64,000 bases of DNA from an uncultured Bacteroidales bacterium. GTDB lineage: Bacteria > Bacteroidota > Bacteroidia > Bacteroidales > UBA1402. This document shows positions 6,469 to 19,116 of the stretch, piece by piece (the first letter of the stretch is position 1; each line of letters starts with the position of its first letter). The stretch spans positions 2,454,808 to 2,518,807 of the forward strand of contig OW818699.1 in the NCBI GenBank assembly GCA_942493385.1. Reading direction: 5' to 3'. Position numbers and translations under genes: made by a program. The notes beneath the pieces were generated by a model. The model was not told where the DNA came from, ran no database searches, and was given only the letters and a program-made list of their open reading frames with translations.

Positions 6469-7637
6469 AAGCTATATCCCAACAATACTTGGAACCTGTT
6501 GGTTTCGGAACCGATGTTGACATAAGGCGACATACCGTCCCCAATGTCTTCCCGTACTTCCAGTGAATAATTCTTGTATTTGACACCGGCACCAAAGACT
6601 ACTCCAATTTCTAATTTTCGGGTATCTTCAAAAAGGGAGCTTTTGGCTTGAAGGGCGTATCCACTCGACATACCTACGTTTAAGAAAAACCAGGAAGGCC
6701 GAAGACGGATCATGTTGTTCATCCTAATGTACTTGAAATCGAAAGTTGCCCATTCGGCAGGAAAATAGAACCCGGCATAACCCTCAAAATTGTAGGATGA
6801 GTAAAGGAATTCATTGTAAAAGGACCAGTTTTTTAGCTTGCCAGCCATCATCAAGTCAACCGAAAAACCTCCGGTAAAATTAGTGGATGGTCCGAAACCG
6901 GCAGCGACATAATCGGTTTCAACATTCACCATGGTTACAGAAACCCCGGCCAAAGCGCCATATACGGTCGAAACTTTGGAATCTTGAATCGAATAGACAG
7001 GCTTGACGTTGGGCAGTTTCAGATAAAGGTTAAACAGATTCTCCAGACTGGATTTGGAATAGTAGGCATCAGCAATTTCTTTCTGCAAGGAGGGCTCATC
7101 CCAAAAATACTGTGCCAACTGCCTAAGAAATCGCATGTTGTGGTATTCTTTCCGAATGTTGTTCACATATTCAATATAGATTTTATGCAACAACAAGCTG
7201 TATACGTTATCCACTTTGATATAAAACTGTTCTCTTTCGTCCCAATCCTTTAAATAGTAAAGAGGTCTTTCTCCACCGTACAAGGTGAGGAGAAAGACGG
7301 TATCCGTGACCAGTTGTAATTCGGGATTCTTTTGTAACTCACTGTCTCTGAATGGACTCATTTCTTTTTGTACGACAGCGCTGACATATTGTTGGTTCAT
7401 GACGCCAAACCCGGCGATGTCACTAGGTGTATAATAGTGAGGGGTACGCATTTTGCTTTCTTTGAAACCAATGTCTTCCGGGTTGATTAATTCTGCATCG
7501 TATTCGATGAGCCCGCGAATAGTATCATGCTGTAAATTAATGATATACCCTGGATGGTAAGTCGTTTTTGAAAGGGAAATCTGTGGAAATAGAATACAGA
7601 GCAATAAAAGGACTAATTTGATTCCAACTTTACTCAT
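6465..7637 (-). CDS. Outer-membrane beta-barrel protein of unknown function (paralog of 13079..14314)
   Basis: Signal peptide. Alternating-hydrophobicity C-terminal half ending GMSPYVNIGSETNRFQVLLGYSF (terminal aromatic). Blockwise similarity to the 411-aa ORF, e.g. LYYLKDWDEREQFYIKVD vs LYYYKDSNTDDLFYLKID. Confidence 0.7.
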   Translation of the reverse strand: MSKVGIKLVLLLLCILFPQISLSKTTYHPGYIINLQHDTIRGLIEYDAELINPEDIGFKESKMRTPHYYTPSDIAGFGVMNQQYVSAVVQKEMSPFRDSELQKNPELQLVTDTVFLLTLYGGERPLYYLKDWDEREQFYIKVDNVYSLLLHKIYIEYVNNIRKEYHNMRFLRQLAQYFWDEPSLQKEIADAYYSKSSLENLFNLYLKLPNVKPVYSIQDSKVSTVYGALAGVSVTMVNVETDYVAAGFGPSTNFTGGFSVDLMMAGKLKNWSFYNEFLYSSYNFEGYAGFYFPAEWATFDFKYIRMNNMIRLRPSWFFLNVGMSSGYALQAKSSLFEDTRKLEIGVVFGAGVKYKNYSLEVREDIGDGMSPYVNIGSETNRFQVLLGYSF

Positions 7638-7662
7638 AGATCTTGGTATTGGTTTGGGCCAC

Positions 7663-7670
7663 CAAATTTA
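7663..7670 (-). promoter_or_regulatory. -7 box TAAATTTG for OM paralog A
   Basis: Plus strand reads CAAATTTA. 26 nt upstream of ATG 7637. Identical box and spacing to paralog B (14340-14347). Confidence 0.5.
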
Positions 7671-7739
7671 TCAATAATTCTGAAACAATCCCCTGCAACA
7701 ACTAATTTAGCTGGAGTTTCCGGTTTGTTCACCGATTAT

Positions 7740-8549
7740 TTATTCCTGAACTCCTTTTTGGTAAATATCCTGCATGATTAATCCCGCCAATGTGAAGCCA
7801 AAAATGGCGGTGATATGCGCCAACGTACCATTGATGGCGGCTTTTAGGCTGCACCATTCGTGATTGGCCAAATCGGGGTCGCCTTCCACGTCCTTATTTT
7901 TCGGGCATAAGCATTTCTCCGTGCCGCAGGACTGGTTGGCACCCAAATTGGGAAGCACTTCGTCGCTGTACACACACAGGAATTTTTTGGCAGGCATTTC
8001 ACCTTTTCGGATGTTGCGACGCATGGCGGCGGCGAGCGGGTCGCCCTTTATTTTCCAGAATTCGTCGACTCGAATGCGGGTGGGATCCACTTTTAATGCG
8101 GCACCCATGGAAGAATACAGTACAGCGCTTGTCTTGCAGGCCGTGCGAATGAGGTCAGCCTTGTTGCTTAAACTATCAATGGCATCAATAATATAATCGT
8201 AATCAGCTAATTGAAAAGAGTCTCGGCTTTCGGCGTTGTAAATCTTCTGCAAAGCGGTGATTTCTGCATTCGGATTTATTTCCAACAGCCTTTTTTTCAA
8301 TGCTTCGGTTTTAACTTCACCGATGGTTAGGGTAGTGGCATGCAACTGACGGTTGACATTGGTCACGCAGATTCGATCGGAATCCACGATGGTAAGCTGT
8401 TTGATGCCGCTGCGTATAAGGCTTTCGGCCGCCCAACTGCCAACACCACCGATGCCGAAAATGATGACTTTTGCCGCCGATATTTGTTTCATTTTTTCCG
8501 AACCGTACAACAATTCCGTCCGGTTAAAAATGCCTTGTTCCAATCCCAT
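7740..8549 (-). CDS. tcdA: tRNA threonylcarbamoyladenosine dehydratase (ThiF/E1-like, TcdA/CsdL)
   Basis: Rossmann motif GIGGVGSWAAESLIRSGI..LTIVDSDRICVTNVNRQ. 269 aa. Confidence 0.85.
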   Translation of the reverse strand: MGLEQGIFNRTELLYGSEKMKQISAAKVIIFGIGGVGSWAAESLIRSGIKQLTIVDSDRICVTNVNRQLHATTLTIGEVKTEALKKRLLEINPNAEITALQKIYNAESRDSFQLADYDYIIDAIDSLSNKADLIRTACKTSAVLYSSMGAALKVDPTRIRVDEFWKIKGDPLAAAMRRNIRKGEMPAKKFLCVYSDEVLPNLGANQSCGTEKCLCPKNKDVEGDPDLANHEWCSLKAAINGTLAHITAIFGFTLAGLIMQDIYQKGVQE

Positions 8550-8794
8550 GAGTCAATCTTTTTTAGAGCCTGCAAATATCGGTTTTTTTGGACTAACCTG
8601 CAAGTTTCACAGTATTTACGGGCTGATATGTGAATCATGTAACTTCTATTCAGAATTGTGTAATTAAAAAAAACTCAATAGTCCCAACTTTGCAATGCTG
8701 TTAAAAGCGACCTGACAACAGGGCGTACAACCGAAGAGATTGAAACAATTTTTGAGTTTGCAGCGAAACTGCATAATAATTAATACGTGCTAAA

Positions 8795-9109
8795 ATGAAA
8801 ACAAAAAATCTATTTGTCCTTTTAATGGTTTTAATGATGAGTGCACCTGTTGCATTCAGTTCAAATGCGAAAGCTGAAGCTACTGCGCCCAAAGTTGAAA
8901 ACGCAATGTCTGCGGAAGAATTAAGCAGCATGAAATCTCGTGTGGAAGAAATTCGTGACATGGATAAATCGAACATGACTGCAAAAGAAAAACGCGATCT
9001 TAAAAAAGAGTTGAAGGAAACCAAAGAAAACATCAGCAAAAGAGACGGTTACATTTATATTGGTACCGGTACCCTCATCCTGATCATTTTATTGATCATC
9101 CTGCTTTAA
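8795..9109 (+). CDS. Small secreted/anchored protein, unknown function
   Basis: Signal peptide (..APVAFSSNAKA), charged helical middle (KEKRDLKKELKETKENISK), C-terminal hydrophobic anchor GTGTLILIILLIILL. Ends only 27 nt before the chosen M1 peptidase start (3 nt before its track ORF). Confidence 0.6.
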   Translation: MKTKNLFVLLMVLMMSAPVAFSSNAKAEATAPKVENAMSAEELSSMKSRVEEIRDMDKSNMTAKEKRDLKKELKETKENISKRDGYIYIGTGTLILIILLIILL

Positions 9110-13078: not shown

Positions 13079-14314
13079 CTAAAAACTGTATGAAACCAGA
13101 ATGTTGCTGCTCCGAGTTTCAGACCCAAGGATAATATAAGGCGACATGCCTCCACCAAAAGCATATCGTGTTTCTAAAGTGAAGTGTTTGTAAATAATAC
13201 CAGCTCCGAATAAGAATCCCATTTCAAAGCGATAGATGTCATTCAAAGCCTTACCGTTTTCGTTCCAGTCTGAATTGTTTTTGGATATGCGTTCCTGATC
13301 ATTTATTTCATGTAGTATATTTCCCATCGAAAAACCTCCATTTACAAACAAAACCCCATTTTGTAGGAGTATTCGGTACCTTAAGAGGTTGTTCAGCTTT
13401 AGATAACCAAAATCGATGTTGGTATTGAATATACGACTGCCATCATCGTAACTACCACCGAACTTGTACGTCGCATACAAAAGTTCACTGCATATCGACC
13501 ACCGACCACGATTTCTCGGCTCCACAAATTCGACAAAAATCCCCGGTGTAAAGGATAATCCTGGTGAATACGTTGGTAAAACCAATTCTGGAAATTCAGT
13601 TCCGGTGAAATGAATGGAATTGATGCTTGCTCCTGCAATCAACCCATAGTTTACTTTGAACTTTATCTTTTTAATTTGGTTAAACTTGGTCGGCCTGACA
13701 AGCTTGTTGTAGGCATTGAAAAGTGCGGTCAGATTGTATCTGGTATACTGAACTCCTTCAATGGTTTTCTTCAATTCTGGTCGGTCGCTCATGTAGTAAA
13801 TTAACTGACCAACGTATTTTTTATACTCCCTAACGCTATTCACATCGTTAATATCATTATGATATAGCTTGTATCCCAATAGTTGGTAGGTAGTGTCAAT
13901 TTTTAAATAGAATAAATCGTCCGTATTGGAGTCCTTGTAATAGTAAAGACTTTTCTCTCCTATGACAAGAGCCCTCAGAAATACTGATTTTCTCTTTAAT
14001 TGCAATGCTGGATCATAGCTAATTGACTCATTCAACCGGGAACTATTTTCAATTTCAGCCTCTGTGCCTACATAGACATCACCATCGACCTGAAACATTT
14101 TGACATCTGTAGGTTGGTAAACGAGCACTTTGTCACCCTGCTTTTTGCAAAATCGGATGGACTCAGGGCTAAATTCCCAGTTTTGATAATCAACCATTCC
14201 AGTGAGGGTGTCACCGACTGAAGTCACAACCACGCCCGGTATGAAATTTTCTATAGCCTGAATTAAGTTGGAAACAGTCAGCAATAGTAATAAAGTAAAA
14301 ATTCGGTGTGTCAT
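13079..14314 (-). CDS. Outer-membrane beta-barrel protein of unknown function (paralog of 6465..7637)
   Basis: Signal peptide. C-terminus GGGMSPYIILGSETRSSNILVSYSF. Same three-part layout as paralog A. Confidence 0.7.
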   Translation of the reverse strand: MTHRIFTLLLLLTVSNLIQAIENFIPGVVVTSVGDTLTGMVDYQNWEFSPESIRFCKKQGDKVLVYQPTDVKMFQVDGDVYVGTEAEIENSSRLNESISYDPALQLKRKSVFLRALVIGEKSLYYYKDSNTDDLFYLKIDTTYQLLGYKLYHNDINDVNSVREYKKYVGQLIYYMSDRPELKKTIEGVQYTRYNLTALFNAYNKLVRPTKFNQIKKIKFKVNYGLIAGASINSIHFTGTEFPELVLPTYSPGLSFTPGIFVEFVEPRNRGRWSICSELLYATYKFGGSYDDGSRIFNTNIDFGYLKLNNLLRYRILLQNGVLFVNGGFSMGNILHEINDQERISKNNSDWNENGKALNDIYRFEMGFLFGAGIIYKHFTLETRYAFGGGMSPYIILGSETRSSNILVSYSF

Positions 14315-14339
14315 TTATTAACTATTAAATTCAATACGT

Positions 14340-14347
14340 CAAATTTA
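14340..14347 (-). promoter_or_regulatory. -7 box TAAATTTG for OM paralog B
   Basis: Plus strand reads CAAATTTA. 26 nt upstream of ATG 14314. Confidence 0.5.
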
Positions 14348-14370
14348 GCAATTAATAAAGAATAATTTCC

Positions 14371-14414
14371 AAAAAAAAGTGAACCCCAAAAGATTTCTTT
14401 CTTCAGGGGTTCAC
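14371..14414 (-). terminator. Rho-independent terminator of the NifU-like/GGGtGRT operon
   Basis: 9-bp stem GTGAACCCC (14379-14387) / GGGGTTCAC (14406-14414). The A8 run at 14371-14378 is a U8 tract on the minus-strand transcript. Confidence 0.75.
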
Positions 14415-14440
14415 TTCTAAATTGCACTGAATGAAGTTTC

Positions 14441-14545
14441 AATAGAGTGCCAAGGTCAAGGCACTTTTTGACAGACACCCCGGAGCGTACTTAAGGTACG
14501 TGAGGAGTGGCTGGCGAAAAGTAACGCAGAGATTGGTGCTCTATT
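14441..14545 (+). repeat. Structured palindromic intergenic repeat, copy A (about 105 nt)
   Basis: AATAGAGTG...GCTCTATT terminal inverted repeats, long imperfect hairpin, conserved core CCCGGAGCGTAC-loop-GTACGTGAGGAG. Second copy at 18135-18238 in reverse orientation. Overlaps the stop codon of the GGGtGRT gene. Confidence 0.85.
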
Positions 14546-15545
14546 GAGACTTCGATGATTCCTCGATTGCGACTGCTACTGCAACAGTAGCACCAACCAT
14601 CGGATTGTTACCCATTCCAAGGAATCCCATCATTTCCACGTGAGCGGGAACTGACGAAGAACCTGCGAATTGAGCATCGCTGTGCATGCGGCCCATGGTG
14701 TCGGTCATGCCGTAAGAGGCGGGACCTGCTGCCATGTTGTCGGGGTGAAGAGTACGACCCGTACCGCCACCGGAAGCAACAGAGAAATACTTCTTGCCTT
14801 GTTCGTAGCATTCCTTCTTGTAGGTGCCTGCAACAGGGTGCTGGAAGCGGGTGGGGTTGGTGGAGTTACCCGTGATGGATACGTCGACACCTTCCTTGTG
14901 CATTACTGCAACGCCTTCGCGAACATCGTCGCAACCGTAGCATTTCACTTTGGCGCGGAGACCTGTGGAGTAGGGGATTTCTTTCACTACAGCCAAGTCA
15001 CTGGTGTAGTAGTCGAACTGCGTTTGAACGTAGGTGAAGCCGTTGATGCGGGAAATGATCATAGCGGCGTCCTTGCCCAGACCATTCAGGATAACGCGCA
15101 AAGGTTCTTTGCGAACTTTATTGGCTTTTTCGGCGATCTTGATGGCGCCTTCAGCAGCGGCAAAAGACTCGTGACCAGCCAGGAAAGCGAAGCATTTGGT
15201 TTCTTCGCGGAGCAGCATGGCGGCGAGGTTACCGTGACCGATACCAACCTTGCGGTCGTCGGCTACCGAACCCTTGATGCAGAATGCCTGCAGACCGATA
15301 CCAATGGCTTCAGCAGCCAGTGCAGCATTGGTGATGCCTTTCTTGATGGCGATGGCAGCACCCATCACGTAAGCCCATTTCGCGTTTTCGAATGCGATGG
15401 CTTGGGTTTCTTCACAAATTTTGTAAGGGTCGATGCCCTTGGCGTCGCAAATGGATTTTGCTTCTTCCAGACTGGAAATTCCGTACTGGTTCAATACCGC
15501 GTTGATCGTTTCGATTCTGCGGTCGTAGCTTTCAAATAATGCCAT
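14541..15545 (-). CDS. GGGtGRT-family protein (conserved, function unknown)
   Basis: Name-giving motif SGGGTGRTLHPDN is encoded at 14751-14771. 334 aa, the usual size for the family. Paired with a NifU/IscU-like gene, as I recall for other anaerobes. Confidence 0.85.
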   Translation of the reverse strand: MALFESYDRRIETINAVLNQYGISSLEEAKSICDAKGIDPYKICEETQAIAFENAKWAYVMGAAIAIKKGITNAALAAEAIGIGLQAFCIKGSVADDRKVGIGHGNLAAMLLREETKCFAFLAGHESFAAAEGAIKIAEKANKVRKEPLRVILNGLGKDAAMIISRINGFTYVQTQFDYYTSDLAVVKEIPYSTGLRAKVKCYGCDDVREGVAVMHKEGVDVSITGNSTNPTRFQHPVAGTYKKECYEQGKKYFSVASGGGTGRTLHPDNMAAGPASYGMTDTMGRMHSDAQFAGSSSVPAHVEMMGFLGMGNNPMVGATVAVAVAIEESSKSQ

Positions 15546-15563
15546 TGTATGTTTCCTCCTATA

Positions 15564-16256
15564 TTATTCGTGACGCGGGTCGATGTATTTAACTCCTTCG
15601 GCAAAGCGACCATAACTGGAGGTTGCTTTCTTCAATGCTTCGTTTGCATCGACGCCTTTCTTGATAGAATCCATGAATTTGCCCAAGTGGACGAATTCAT
15701 AACCGATGACGAGGTCGTCAGCGTCCAGGGCCATGCGAGAGCAATAGCCTTCGGCCATTTCGAGGTAACGAACCCCTTTGGCCATTGTGCCGTACATGGT
15801 ACCAACCTGACTGCGAAGGCCTTTGCCAAGGTCTTCCAAGCCTGCGCCGATGGGCAAACCACCTTCGGAGAATGCGGATTGGGTACGTCCGTAGACGATT
15901 TGCAAGAACAATTCGCGCATGGCCGTATTGATGGCGTCGCAAACGAGGTCGGTGTTCAGTGCTTCCAAAATGGTTTTGCCGGGAAGGATTTCAGAAGCCA
16001 TCGCTGCTGAATGGGTCATTCCAGAGCAACCGATGGTTTCGACCAAAGCTTCTTGAATGATGCCGTCCTTCACGTTGAGGGTAAGCTTGCAGGCACCCTG
16101 TTGAGGGGCGCACCAGCCAACTCCGTGTGTGAGACCGGAGATGTCTGACACTTCTTTGGCTCTTACCCACTTTCCTTCTTCAGGAATCGGAGCACTCGCA
16201 TGATTGGCTCCTTTTTGTACGCAACACATCTGTTGCACTTCGTGTGAATAAATCAT
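15564..16256 (-). CDS. NifU/IscU N-terminal-like Fe-S scaffold-like protein
   Basis: Cys-containing motifs GVGWCAPQQGACKL and ETIGCSGMTHSAAMAS resemble the IscU GCGSAIASSS segment. 18 nt upstream of the GGGtGRT gene (operon). Confidence 0.7.
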   Translation of the reverse strand: MIYSHEVQQMCCVQKGANHASAPIPEEGKWVRAKEVSDISGLTHGVGWCAPQQGACKLTLNVKDGIIQEALVETIGCSGMTHSAAMASEILPGKTILEALNTDLVCDAINTAMRELFLQIVYGRTQSAFSEGGLPIGAGLEDLGKGLRSQVGTMYGTMAKGVRYLEMAEGYCSRMALDADDLVIGYEFVHLGKFMDSIKKGVDANEALKKATSSYGRFAEGVKYIDPRHE

Positions 16257-16353
16257 TTTTCTAGATTTTGTGTGAGAGATTGTATATTATCCTAAATAAC
16301 TCCTTGATTGATTGCAGATTAACACATGAATGAAGCCTTATTGAAAAGCATTG

Positions 16354-16361
16354 CAAAATTA
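16354..16361 (-). promoter_or_regulatory. -7 box TAATTTTG for the NifU-like/GGGtGRT operon
   Basis: Plus strand reads CAAAATTA; extended minus-strand form TAATTTTGCAA. 98 nt upstream of ATG 16256, implying a long 5' UTR. Confidence 0.4.
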
Positions 16362-16484
16362 CTAAAAAAAGGACAATTCTGCAAGCCATTTTGTTTGAGT
16401 ATTTGAAAAAAATTGACGAAATTTGCACCGTTTTTAAGGAAAACACCAAACAAACATTCAACCAATCAATTATACGATTACACT

Positions 16485-18128
16485 ATGACAAAAAGTGCCT
16501 TGCAGATAGCGCGCGCCGCCTATCAGCCGAAAATGCCCCAAGCTTTGACCGGCTTCGTAAAAATGAAAGAAGGAGCAGCCACCCAATCTGTTGCCGACCA
16601 AGATGCCATTAAAGAGTTGTTTCCAAACACCTACGGAATGCCTTTGGTTTCGTTTGAACCAAGTGATGCAGCCACCCACTTTGATCCCATCAATGTTGGT
16701 GTGATTCTTTCTGGCGGACAAGCCCCAGGCGGCCACAACGTCATTGCCGGAATTTTCGACGGCATCAAGCATTTGAACAAGGCTTCCAAGCTGTACGGTT
16801 TCATCTTGGGTCCTGGTGGCCTGGTGGATCACAACTATATGGAATTGACTGCTGACATCATCGATGAATACCGCAACACAGGTGGTTTCGACATCATCGG
16901 CTCAGGCCGCACCAAACTGGAAACTCACGAACAGTTCGACAAAGGACTGGTAATCTTGAAAGCGCTGGATATCAAGGCACTGGTTGTAATCGGTGGTGAT
17001 GATTCAAATACAAATGCTTGTGTATTAGCCGAATACTATGCCAATATTAAAGCAGGGGTTCAGGTTATTGGTTGCCCCAAAACCATCGACGGCGACCTCA
17101 AGAACAGCATGATTGAAGCTTCTTTCGGTTTCGACACCGCTTGTAAAGTCTATTCCGAAGTCATCGGCAATATTCAACGTGACTGCAATTCAGCCCGTAA
17201 ATACTGGCACTTCATCAAACTGATGGGCCGTTCCGCATCGCACATCGCATTGGAATGCGCCTTGCAGGTTCAACCCAACTATTGCATCATTTCCGAAGAA
17301 GTGGAAGCGCTCAACCTGACACTGGACGATGTCGTCACCAACATTGCAAAAGCCGTCGCTCAACGTGCCGAACAAGGCAACAACTTCGGCACCGTCTTGA
17401 TTCCCGAAGGTTTGGTCGAATTCATACCTTCCATCAAAAAGCTGATTTCCGAACTGAACGACTTCTTGGCAACACATCAGGAAGAATTCAACCTGATCCG
17501 TCACTCCGAAAAGCGCAACTACATCATCAAGTTGATCAGCAAGGAAAACTCCGATATTTATGCTTCACTGCCCGAAGGCGTTGCCCGTCAGCTGACGTTG
17601 GACCGTGACCCACACGGCAATGTTCAGGTGTCGCTCATCGAAACGGAAAAGATGTTGGCCGAAATGGTAGATACCAAACTGAAAGAATGGAAGAAGGAAG
17701 GCAAATTCATTGGCAAGTTTGCTTCTCAAGTACATTTCTTCGGCTACGAAGGACGCTGTGCCGCACCATCCAACTACGATGCAGACTATTGCTACTCACT
17801 GGGTTACACGGCTGCTCAACTCATCGCTTCCGGCAAGACTGGTTACATGTCATCTGTACGCAACACGACTGCCCCAGCTTCTGAATGGATTTCTGGCGGG
17901 GTACCCATCACCATGATGATGAATATGGAACGTCGCCACGGTGAAATGAAGCCTGTTATTCAAAAGGCTTTGGTTGAATTGGACGGCAAGCCGTTCAAGG
18001 CGTTCGCAGCCAAGCGTGCCGCATGGGCCATCCATACGGATTATGTGTATCCGGGACCGATTCAGTACTTTGGTCCGACGGAAGTTTGCGATCAGCCCTC
18101 GAAAACCCTAGTCCTCGAACAAAAGTGA
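16485..18128 (+). CDS. pfp: Pyrophosphate-dependent 6-phosphofructokinase
   Basis: Long-form PFK (547 aa). Motifs GVILSGGQAPGGHNVI, VVIGGDDSNTNA, GCPKTIDGDLKN. Start set at MTKSALQIARAAYQPK (ATG 16485). Confidence 0.9.
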   Translation: MTKSALQIARAAYQPKMPQALTGFVKMKEGAATQSVADQDAIKELFPNTYGMPLVSFEPSDAATHFDPINVGVILSGGQAPGGHNVIAGIFDGIKHLNKASKLYGFILGPGGLVDHNYMELTADIIDEYRNTGGFDIIGSGRTKLETHEQFDKGLVILKALDIKALVVIGGDDSNTNACVLAEYYANIKAGVQVIGCPKTIDGDLKNSMIEASFGFDTACKVYSEVIGNIQRDCNSARKYWHFIKLMGRSASHIALECALQVQPNYCIISEEVEALNLTLDDVVTNIAKAVAQRAEQGNNFGTVLIPEGLVEFIPSIKKLISELNDFLATHQEEFNLIRHSEKRNYIIKLISKENSDIYASLPEGVARQLTLDRDPHGNVQVSLIETEKMLAEMVDTKLKEWKKEGKFIGKFASQVHFFGYEGRCAAPSNYDADYCYSLGYTAAQLIASGKTGYMSSVRNTTAPASEWISGGVPITMMMNMERRHGEMKPVIQKALVELDGKPFKAFAAKRAAWAIHTDYVYPGPIQYFGPTEVCDQPSKTLVLEQK

Positions 18129-18134
18129 TTTCCA

Positions 18135-18238
18135 AATAGAGCGTCCATCTCGGCGTTACTCATAAAAAATGGCTCCTCACGTACCAAAGTACGCTCCGGG
18201 GCCATTTTTCATGAGTGCCTTGACCTGAACACTCTATT
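18135..18238 (-). repeat. Structured palindromic intergenic repeat, copy B (about 104 nt)
   Basis: Its reverse complement aligns block by block with copy A. Starts 6 nt after the pfp stop codon, between convergent pfp and prmA. Confidence 0.85.
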
Positions 18239-18276
18239 AGAAAATCACCCAGTGGGGTGTTTGCCAGAAGAAAGAA

Positions 18277-19116
18277 TTACATCTCAAAGCGGACGGCGAC
18301 CCAGTTATTTTTAGAGGTGTGGGTGATGAATTTCAAACCGAGGCTTTCAGCCTTTTCGCGGATGATGGGGAGGTCGGATTCGTAGAAGCCGCTCATGAAT
18401 AGGAGTGAGCCGCTGTGCATTTTGGCGGTGTAGGCAGCCATGTCGGCAAGCAGGATGTTGCGGTTGATGTTGGCGAAGATGATGTCAAAAGCAGGTGCGT
18501 TTTCAAGCAATTCAGCACCGCCAGTCAGGATTTCGATGTCTGGCGAATTGTTCAGCTGAATGTTCTCCAGCGCATTATTGATGGCCCATTGGTCGATGTC
18601 GATGCCAAGCACGTTAACCGCACCTTTCATGGATGCCAGGATGGCTAAAACAGCGGTACCGCAACCCATATCCAGGAACGATTTGCCCTTGACATCGAGT
18701 TTTAACAGCGCCTCCAACATCAGGCTGGTGGTTTCGTGATGACCAGTGCCGAAAGCCATTTTTGGATCGATCAGAATGTCGTACTGAGCTTGAGGAATGT
18801 TGGTGTGGAAAGAACTGTGAATCACGCAATCCGTACCAATCACGATGGGCTGGAAATAATTCTTTTCCCATTCCTCGTTCCAATTCTGCCCCGGAATGCA
18901 TTTGGCCGAAAAATCGAGTGCAGAACCGAACATTTCTAATGGAATATGCTTCCGTACGTTAACTTCATCGTATTTTGCTGACGAAACGTAAGCAAGCATT
19001 CCGTCTTCGCACTCGCTGAAACTTTCAAAACCGGTTTCGGCCAATTCAGCAGCGAGCAAATCGTTGATAACGGTGTTATTAGGGGTGATTTTGACGTGAA
19101 TTTCAATATAATCCAT
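18277..19116 (-). CDS. prmA: Ribosomal protein L11 methyltransferase
   Basis: SAM motif FLDMGCGTAVLAILA and the GFYESD region. Start set at MDYIEIHVKITP (ATG 19116); the track start 19194 adds an atypical 26 aa. Confidence 0.88.
   Translation of the reverse strand: MDYIEIHVKITPNNTVINDLLAAELAETGFESFSECEDGMLAYVSSAKYDEVNVRKHIPLEMFGSALDFSAKCIPGQNWNEEWEKNYFQPIVIGTDCVIHSSFHTNIPQAQYDILIDPKMAFGTGHHETTSLMLEALLKLDVKGKSFLDMGCGTAVLAILASMKGAVNVLGIDIDQWAINNALENIQLNNSPDIEILTGGAELLENAPAFDIIFANINRNILLADMAAYTAKMHSGSLLFMSGFYESDLPIIREKAESLGLKFITHTSKNNWVAVRFEM

Follow-up and report, generated by a model that had tools for sequence, protein, structure and literature searches.

The window analysed here is a stretch of 64,000 nucleotides from an uncultured Bacteroidales bacterium (GTDB lineage UBA1402; GenBank assembly GCA_942493385.1, contig OW818699.1, positions 2,454,808 to 2,518,807 of the forward strand), and our subject is a pair of minus-strand genes in it that encode an IscU-like protein and a protein of the GGGtGRT family. 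An earlier note, written by a model from the letters of the window, had described the two as a conserved operon without an assigned function, placed in a central-metabolism setting and possibly dependent on an iron-sulfur (Fe-S) cluster or metal. The comparisons reported below make the pair a candidate for the enzyme that replaces enolase in many gut and rumen bacteria. The genes and their signals are arranged as follows:

15564..16256, minus strand: first gene, IscU-like protein of 230 amino acids (open reading frame (ORF) call)
15546..15563, minus strand: intergenic spacer of 18 nt, AGGAGGAAACA on the coding strand, containing AGGAGG, the ribosome-binding site (RBS) of the second gene
14541..15545, minus strand: second gene, GGGtGRT protein of 334 amino acids (PF14057; ORF call and Pfam)
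16354..16361, minus strand: putative Bacteroidota -7 box TAATTTTG (consensus TAnnTTTG), read from the sequence
16257..16353, minus strand: putative 5' untranslated region (UTR) of about 90-97 nt, predicted from the position of the box
14377..14416, minus strand: intrinsic terminator, an inverted repeat forming an 18-pair hairpin followed by U8 (-26 kcal/mol, z -5.5)

The two genes form a real operon on the minus strand. The short spacer with its RBS implies co-transcription of both genes, and the gap between the genes of the pair is 8-50 nt in most of 77 related loci. Both ORFs and the 18-nt gap lie exactly where the earlier note had placed them (15564-16256 and 14541-15545), and the strong terminator that it mentioned is the hairpin listed above. 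Its proposal of a -7 box with a 5' UTR of about 98 nt is plausible, as TAATTTTG fits the consensus and stands 97 nt 5' of the first-gene ATG. No Rfam family and no fluoride riboswitch were found in the 5' UTR by an Rfam E-value scan of positions 14200-18400.

The product of the second gene matches PF14057 from end to end, with residues 4-329 aligned to profile positions 1-326 of 327 (644.2 bits, E = 4e-194, gathering cut-off 27). The family-defining motif GGGTGRT is present at residues 259-265 (14751-14771), as had been noted, and is preceded by S258; both the serine and the motif are invariant in the alignment, even in a member of only 52% identity (P0151). The other invariant Gly, His, Asp and Glu residues and the glycine-rich motifs cluster in residues 220-315, and the alignment contains no invariant cysteine. 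The gene is single-copy in this 4.12-Mb genome. Sequence and profile searches retrieved no relative of the protein in the PDB. An AlphaFold2 model built from a 9-sequence alignment reached a mean predicted local distance difference test (pLDDT) score of 72 and a predicted template-modelling (pTM) score of 0.79, with residues 226-307 below 50, and a Foldseek search of the PDB with this model gave no match (best E 0.05, TM-score at most 0.25).

The partner protein carries GCSGMTHSAAMAS at residues 76-88, and its predicted IscU-fold core spans approximately residues 35-125. Seven of its residues, C49, C56, C77 and C106 together with H19, H44 and H82, are invariant, and C49/C56 and C77 align with the first two cluster ligands of IscU; the invariant C106 may replace the third ligand cysteine. 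In the structural model, which is of low confidence (pLDDT 59.5), the top 22 Foldseek matches in the PDB are all IscU or SufU structures with probabilities of up to 1.0 (best E 0.025, TM-score to the target about 0.5, rmsd about 3 A over some 97 columns), and no match was found by Foldseek in the PDB for the C-terminal domain of about 105 residues. Judged by its model scores, the partner is nevertheless not a bona fide member of the IscU/NifU families: it falls just short of the PF01592 (NifU_N) cut-off (21.6 bits against 22) and far below those of TIGR03419 (27 against 187.9), TIGR01999 (22.1 against 192.4) and TIGR01994 (18.1 against 92.5). No gene for a cysteine desulfurase (IscS, NifS or SufS) or a chaperone accompanies the pair in 80 loci. 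The earlier description of an IscU/NifU-like partner may hold for the cysteines and the predicted fold and fails for membership, given these scores and the missing desulfurase. Neither protein of the pair resembles enolase, by Pfam match at E up to 10 or by sequence or fold match in the PDB, and Pfam scans found no DNA-binding or signalling domain in either of them.

The association of the two genes is remarkably strict across a wide range of bacteria. The 120 nearest relatives of each protein in the database share 85-100% identity with it, and a scan of one genome per species retrieved at least 597 loci. The best 80 of these, which we examined, show 79-88% identity and belong to six phylum-level groups: Bacteroidota, Bacillota (Clostridia and Erysipelotrichaceae), Spirochaetota (Treponema), Actinomycetota (Eggerthellaceae), Desulfobacterota (Syntrophorhabdus) and an alphaproteobacterial metagenome-assembled genome (MAG) named 'Azospirillum CAG:239'. 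The partner gene lies directly upstream on the same strand, at 74-90% identity, in all 77 testable loci (in the remaining three a contig end interrupts the locus), and no neighbour other than the pair itself is conserved among the 80. The conserved two-gene operon claimed by the earlier note, which had suggested a neighbourhood analysis, is thus borne out in six phyla. By sequence, the GGGtGRT family as a whole also appears unusually uniform, because a scan of 1.84 billion representatives found, at 50% identity, approximately one cluster accompanied almost only by its fragments and chimeras, with a few members at 52-56%. The patchy distribution among close relatives, combined with 80-88% identity across phyla, suggests frequent horizontal transfer or loss.

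Two side observations may be added. The only other sampled genome of the family to which this genome belongs (G548) has enolase and lacks the pair. Five metagenome homologues (P0121, P0272, P0275, P0278 and P0282), removed from our alignments, contain internal stretches of 40-170 residues of their own sequence repeated in tandem, and are most likely assembly artefacts of very high-coverage genes.

The presence of the pair is strongly associated with the absence of enolase. Scoring enolase by PF00113 (Enolase_C) in a sample of 399 Clostridia genomes gave the following counts:

Clostridia with the pair: enolase absent in 72, present in 145
Clostridia without the pair: enolase absent in 8, present in 174

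Enolase is therefore missing from 33% of the 217 carriers and from 4% of the 182 non-carriers (Fisher odds ratio 10.8, p = 4e-14). Phosphoglycerate kinase (PGK) was found in 396 of the 399 genomes, including all 72 enolase-less carriers, so that the gap in these carriers is specific to enolase; of the eight genomes with neither enolase nor the pair, two are without PGK as well. A second sample, of 201 genomes from 137 families of the order to which our bacterium belongs, points in the same direction. The pair occurs in 35 of them, and it is present in five of the six genomes without enolase (all 99-100% complete) as compared to 30 of the 195 with it (p = 7e-4); the losses fall in five families, at least four of them in pair-carrying lineages (p about 0.004), and all five enolase-less genomes that were checked have PGK. 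In a spot check of ten pair-carrying genomes, six had no enolase, among them that of the isolate Oscillibacter sp. 1-3.

The genomic context points to the same step of glycolysis. In six genomes of two divergent groups the order pgk-tpi-gpmI-partner-GGGtGRT is found on one strand, and at least 12 other genomes of this sample carry eno some 3 kb downstream of pgk and in the same orientation. The pair thus sits, directly after gpmI, in the slot usually taken by eno.

Codon usage suggests that the pair is probably very highly expressed, as the earlier note had suspected without being able to measure it. We ranked 2846 ORFs of this genome by codon adaptation index (CAI), using its 19 ribosomal-protein and EF-G genes as reference, since a self-consistent index computed with no reference set converged on an unrelated compositional axis. 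The GGGtGRT gene ranks 28th and its partner 93rd, among genes such as those for GAPDH, EF-Tu, phosphoenolpyruvate (PEP) carboxykinase, GroEL, triose-phosphate isomerase (TPI) and PFOR, which also surround the neighbouring phosphofructokinase gene pfp (48th). The recognised glycolytic genes include GAPDH (first), TPI (9th), FBA (52nd) and PGK (56th), and the lowest of them is the canonical enolase, which this genome does possess at another site (C1:4084774-4086048; L082), where it coexists with the pair and ranks 267th, below both genes of the pair.

Codon choice explains the two long antisense ORFs that the earlier note had regarded as shadows of codon periodicity. Both exist (14670-15539 and 15549-16010), and they arise because TTA, CTA and TCA codons are scarce, with three of these in the GGGtGRT gene against 8.4 expected; we accordingly rejected the possibility that they are real antisense genes. 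Such shadow ORFs recur opposite the pair in other phyla (L003:5275-6897, minus strand, and 14 further related loci) and can cover both genes and exceed the real ones in length (540 amino acids in a Treponema MAG), so that naive longest-ORF calling picks the wrong strand.

In agreement with the earlier note, we found no function assigned to the pair in the full-text literature, where it is mentioned only in proteome, transcriptome and transposon-screen data; databases label the partner NifU. These data indicate a response to iron. In Bacteroides thetaiotaomicron the orthologues BT0173-74 fall 11-13-fold at low iron, alongside the Fe-S fumarase (PMC10434189), which is regulation like that of an Fe-S isozyme, and the homologue in C. 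pasteurianum (F502_05012) is iron-responsive as well (PMC5395762). Both proteins have also been detected in rumen metaproteomes (PMC7035244). Together with the four invariant cysteines in a domain of predicted IscU fold, the B. thetaiotaomicron response makes a dependence on iron probable, in line with the Fe-S or metal dependence proposed in the earlier note.

A predicted IscU fold with conserved cysteines, iron-responsive expression and a NifU database name would also suit an Fe-S assembly, repair, iron-buffering or sulfur-transfer module, in which an IscU-like scaffold works with an accessory protein and is abundant because anaerobes carry many Fe-S enzymes. We regard this as improbable, however, since the partner scores below every IscU, NifU and SufU cut-off and travels with no desulfurase or chaperone gene in the 80 loci, and since one would expect low iron to leave a scaffold in place or induce it, not to repress it 12-fold. 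An identity of 80-88% across phyla is moreover unusual for an accessory factor, and such a role would leave unexplained both the loss of enolase in carriers and the pgk-tpi-gpmI context.

Genetic data come from B. thetaiotaomicron, where transposon insertions in BT0173-4 act in the way that those in pfkA do: they derepress Cur, a regulator silenced by glucose, about 2-fold, with no growth defect on glucose (bioRxiv 10.64898/2026.04.10.717545). The phenotype shared with pfkA links the pair genetically to glycolysis, and the normal growth on glucose is what would be expected of a redundant isozyme. One could also take these data to mean that the pair has no catalytic role and modulates glycolytic flux as a sensor or regulator (responding to iron, redox state or a metabolite) or as a moonlighting structural protein, given that its sole published genetic phenotype is a regulatory one (2-fold derepression of the Cur-controlled Roc) and that growth on glucose is unimpaired. 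This seems to us very improbable: a regulator would not typically match glycolytic enzymes in abundance and codon adaptation, neither protein has a DNA-binding or signalling domain, and the viability of enolase loss would be left unexplained.

The absence of enolase from certain gut and rumen bacteria has been reported repeatedly. Butyrivibrio proteoclasticus B316 was described in 2010 as lacking the enzyme (PMC2914790), and in a 2018 survey of more than 30,000 isolates enolase was absent in less than 0.5%, the isolates lacking it being mostly rumen Butyrivibrio, Prevotella or Lachnospiraceae (PMC6118326); according to a 2024 review, missing enolase remains an open gap and the methylglyoxal route is incomplete in such genomes (PMC11187502). 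In Prevotella brevis GA33 enolase is missing from both genome and proteome (ENO 'NA'), and gpmI, apgM, pyk (pyruvate kinase) and pckA (PEP carboxykinase) are present and expressed (PMC10542786). This enolase-less strain expresses both proteins of the pair abundantly: in cell extract the GGGtGRT protein and the adjacent 'NifU homolog' have tabulated values of 104-152 in both replicates, at 79-100% coverage, comparable with those of DnaK, RplC and glutamate dehydrogenase (Gdh) (PMC10542786).

These observations make it quite likely, in our judgement, that the pair is an obligate, iron-dependent and very abundant two-subunit enzyme tied to lower glycolysis. Our more specific proposal, put forward tentatively and at slightly less than even chances, is that it is an oxygen-labile Fe-S 2-phosphoglycerate dehydratase, converting 2-phosphoglycerate to PEP as a non-homologous analogue of enolase; we are equally tentative about the wider form of this proposal, in which a non-homologous, Fe-S-dependent enolase with a new fold would be the main enolase of many anaerobes.

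A less likely, though far from negligible, explanation is that the pair carries out some other reaction of central carbon metabolism and allows the cell to do without enolase, for instance as a step of a bypass from triose phosphate or phosphoglycerate to pyruvate or PEP, such as a glycerate or phosphoglycerate lyase or an enzyme of a methylglyoxal route. The concentration of enolase loss in carriers, the glycolytic operon context, the high expression and the pfkA-like transposon phenotype would fit such a bypass equally well, and coexistence with enolase would be natural if the two reactions differ. A bypass would also fit better than an isozyme the very low enolase activity that Kelly et al. 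measured in extracts of B316, a result that speaks against our proposal, although the assay was a coupled spectrophotometric one with no mention of anaerobic handling, on a strain that may or may not carry the pair (PMC2914790). On the other hand, the pair directly follows gpmI, which yields 2-phosphoglycerate and nothing else; in P. brevis GA33 the enzymes on both sides of the enolase gap are expressed (gpmI and apgM on one, pyruvate kinase and PEP carboxykinase on the other); the methylglyoxal route is incomplete in such genomes (PMC11187502); and no further conserved neighbour is there to supply the extra steps.

If the pair is indeed a 2-phosphoglycerate dehydratase, its two proteins would together make up a heteromeric, iron-dependent enzyme that is abundant and acts in lower glycolysis. 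The standard reaction of Fe-S hydro-lyases removes a beta-hydroxyl adjacent to a carboxylate. Three of the four invariant cysteines of the IscU-fold subunit would anchor an Fe-S cluster, and an iron left with no cysteine ligand would serve as the Lewis acid that binds the C3 hydroxyl, as it does in class I fumarase and Fe-S L-serine dehydratase. GGGTGRT and the neighbouring glycine-rich motifs of the other subunit would bind the substrate at its C2 phosphate and its carboxylate and would also provide the base. In the present genome the pair would coexist with the Mg-dependent enolase and would probably be the main isozyme under iron-replete conditions, a role that fits its higher codon adaptation, the iron repression seen in B. 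thetaiotaomicron and the mild, non-lethal transposon phenotype.

Several further points weigh against an enolase function. Most carriers keep enolase (145 of 217 in Clostridia, 30 of 35 in the bacterium's own order, and the present genome), so that redundancy must be assumed. Seven PGK-positive genomes lack both Enolase_C and GGGtGRT, and either these genes were missed in them or they use a third solution to the enolase step:

Clostridia: G084, G135, G153, G301, G336, G392
Own order: G533

The genomes compared are related and not independent of each other, with the Clostridia statistics computed without regard to kinship, and enolase loss and the pair may both track a gut or rumen lifestyle. 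Fluoride riboswitches showed no link to the pair in our samples: no match to a fluoride-riboswitch regular expression occurred in 71 regions upstream of it, and none of 30 RF01734 loci in 151 Clostridia genomes had it within 1.5 kb. Within the partner, C172, which HMMER aligned near the third IscU ligand, is not conserved. Finally, the predicted models of the pair appear weakest where conservation is highest, so that the active site cannot be inspected in them.

Upstream of the operon, and outside it, a pyrophosphate (PPi)-dependent phosphofructokinase gene is transcribed in the opposite direction, and a structured repeat follows both units:

16485..18128, plus strand: pfp, PPi-dependent phosphofructokinase (PPi-PFK), divergent from the operon (TIGR02477, PF00365)
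14433..14553, minus strand: palindromic repeat of 121 nt in the 3' UTR, recognised by its inverted-repeat arms; overlaps the last four codons and the stop of the GGGtGRT gene
18127..18246, plus strand: second copy of the repeat, after pfp, aligning with the copy after the GGGtGRT gene

The identity of the divergent gene is as the earlier note had it (850 bits to TIGR02477, cut-off 588). We rejected adjacency to PPi-PFK as a conserved feature of the pair, since beyond this genome it was seen in one further case only, a Paludibacteraceae MAG (L075). There the PPi-type gene (7328-8986, plus strand) follows the pair on the same strand after 356 nt, an arrangement unlike the divergent one found here, and the genome has no Enolase_C. 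The central-metabolism setting proposed for the operon thus stands insofar as the comparisons tie the pair to glycolysis, and fails as far as the neighbouring phosphofructokinase is concerned, whose adjacency is not generally conserved.

The repeat that the earlier note had seen after both units is the same 121-nt element in the two places. About 28 copies are found in the genome, of which 26 overlap or abut (within 16 nt) the stop codon of an ORF, and in all 26 the better-scoring orientation of the repeat corresponds to the strand of the host gene. By CAI, ten of these 26 genes rank within the top 10%. The element forms a long hairpin when folded (-46.1 kcal/mol, z -7.4) and matches no Rfam family; it looks like a 3'-UTR element of the repetitive extragenic palindromic (REP) or miniature inverted-repeat transposable element (MITE) kind, placed upstream of the terminator.

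Enolase counts as a universal enzyme of glycolysis. If our proposal is correct, the pair would be a new analogous glycolytic enzyme with a new fold and an Fe-S mechanism, and the survival of Butyrivibrio, Prevotella, Oscillospiraceae, Treponema and others with no enolase gene would be explained. The pathways reconstructed for thousands of gut and rumen genomes would then have to be revised, one of the most abundant proteins of gut and rumen metaproteomes without an assigned function would be accounted for, and iron supply would be linked to glycolytic flux in Bacteroides. Even if the reaction is a different one, identity of 80-88% across phyla, expression at a glycolytic level and the lack of a solved structural relative make the pair a first-rank target for characterisation.

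Among known systems, the closest are the iron-regulated, abundant and uncharacterised pairs described in other bacteria. BT0173 (GGGtGRT) and BT0174 ('NifU') of B. thetaiotaomicron belong to the same families, with the same gene order, very high identity and PF14057 detected, and the same pair is found in P. brevis GA33 (T433DRAFT_01350/01351) and in C. pasteurianum (F502_05012). The present operon differs from these in being divergent from PPi-PFK and in its lineage-specific 121-nt 3'-UTR repeat.

With the IscU/NifU scaffolds (PF01592; TIGR01999, TIGR03419; PDB 4eb5, 7c8o) the partner core appears to share the topology of a beta-sheet plus helices. A GC(S/G)xxxxS motif surrounds C77, and cysteines align with the positions of the first two IscU ligands. 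Unlike these scaffolds, the partner is extended at its N-terminus, carries the additional C-terminal domain of some 105 residues, has four invariant cysteines in a different spacing, scores below the family cut-offs, and is always paired with GGGtGRT and never with a desulfurase.

The likeness to Fe-S hydro-lyases (SdaAA/SdaAB, FumA/FumB, aconitase), a class marked by dehydratase activity and an oxygen-labile [4Fe-4S] cluster in which one iron is non-cysteinyl, would be a functional analogy only. It consists in the proposed Fe-assisted elimination of a beta-hydroxyl, the two-subunit organisation and repression at low iron beside a metal-independent or Mg-dependent isozyme, for which FumA and FumC, an iron-regulated Fe-S isozyme beside a metal-independent one, are the known example. 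In contrast to these enzymes, the pair shows no detectable sequence or fold similarity to them, and its cluster is a proposed one.

Compared with canonical enolase (PF00113/PF03952, EC 4.2.1.11), the pair would catalyse the same step and occupies the same slot after gpmI in six genomes, but it is unrelated in sequence and predicted fold and would depend on iron instead of Mg. The genes in this window are orthologues of an already annotated, uncharacterised family, and what would be new is the functional hypothesis, which, if confirmed, would add a categorically new enzyme to glycolysis.

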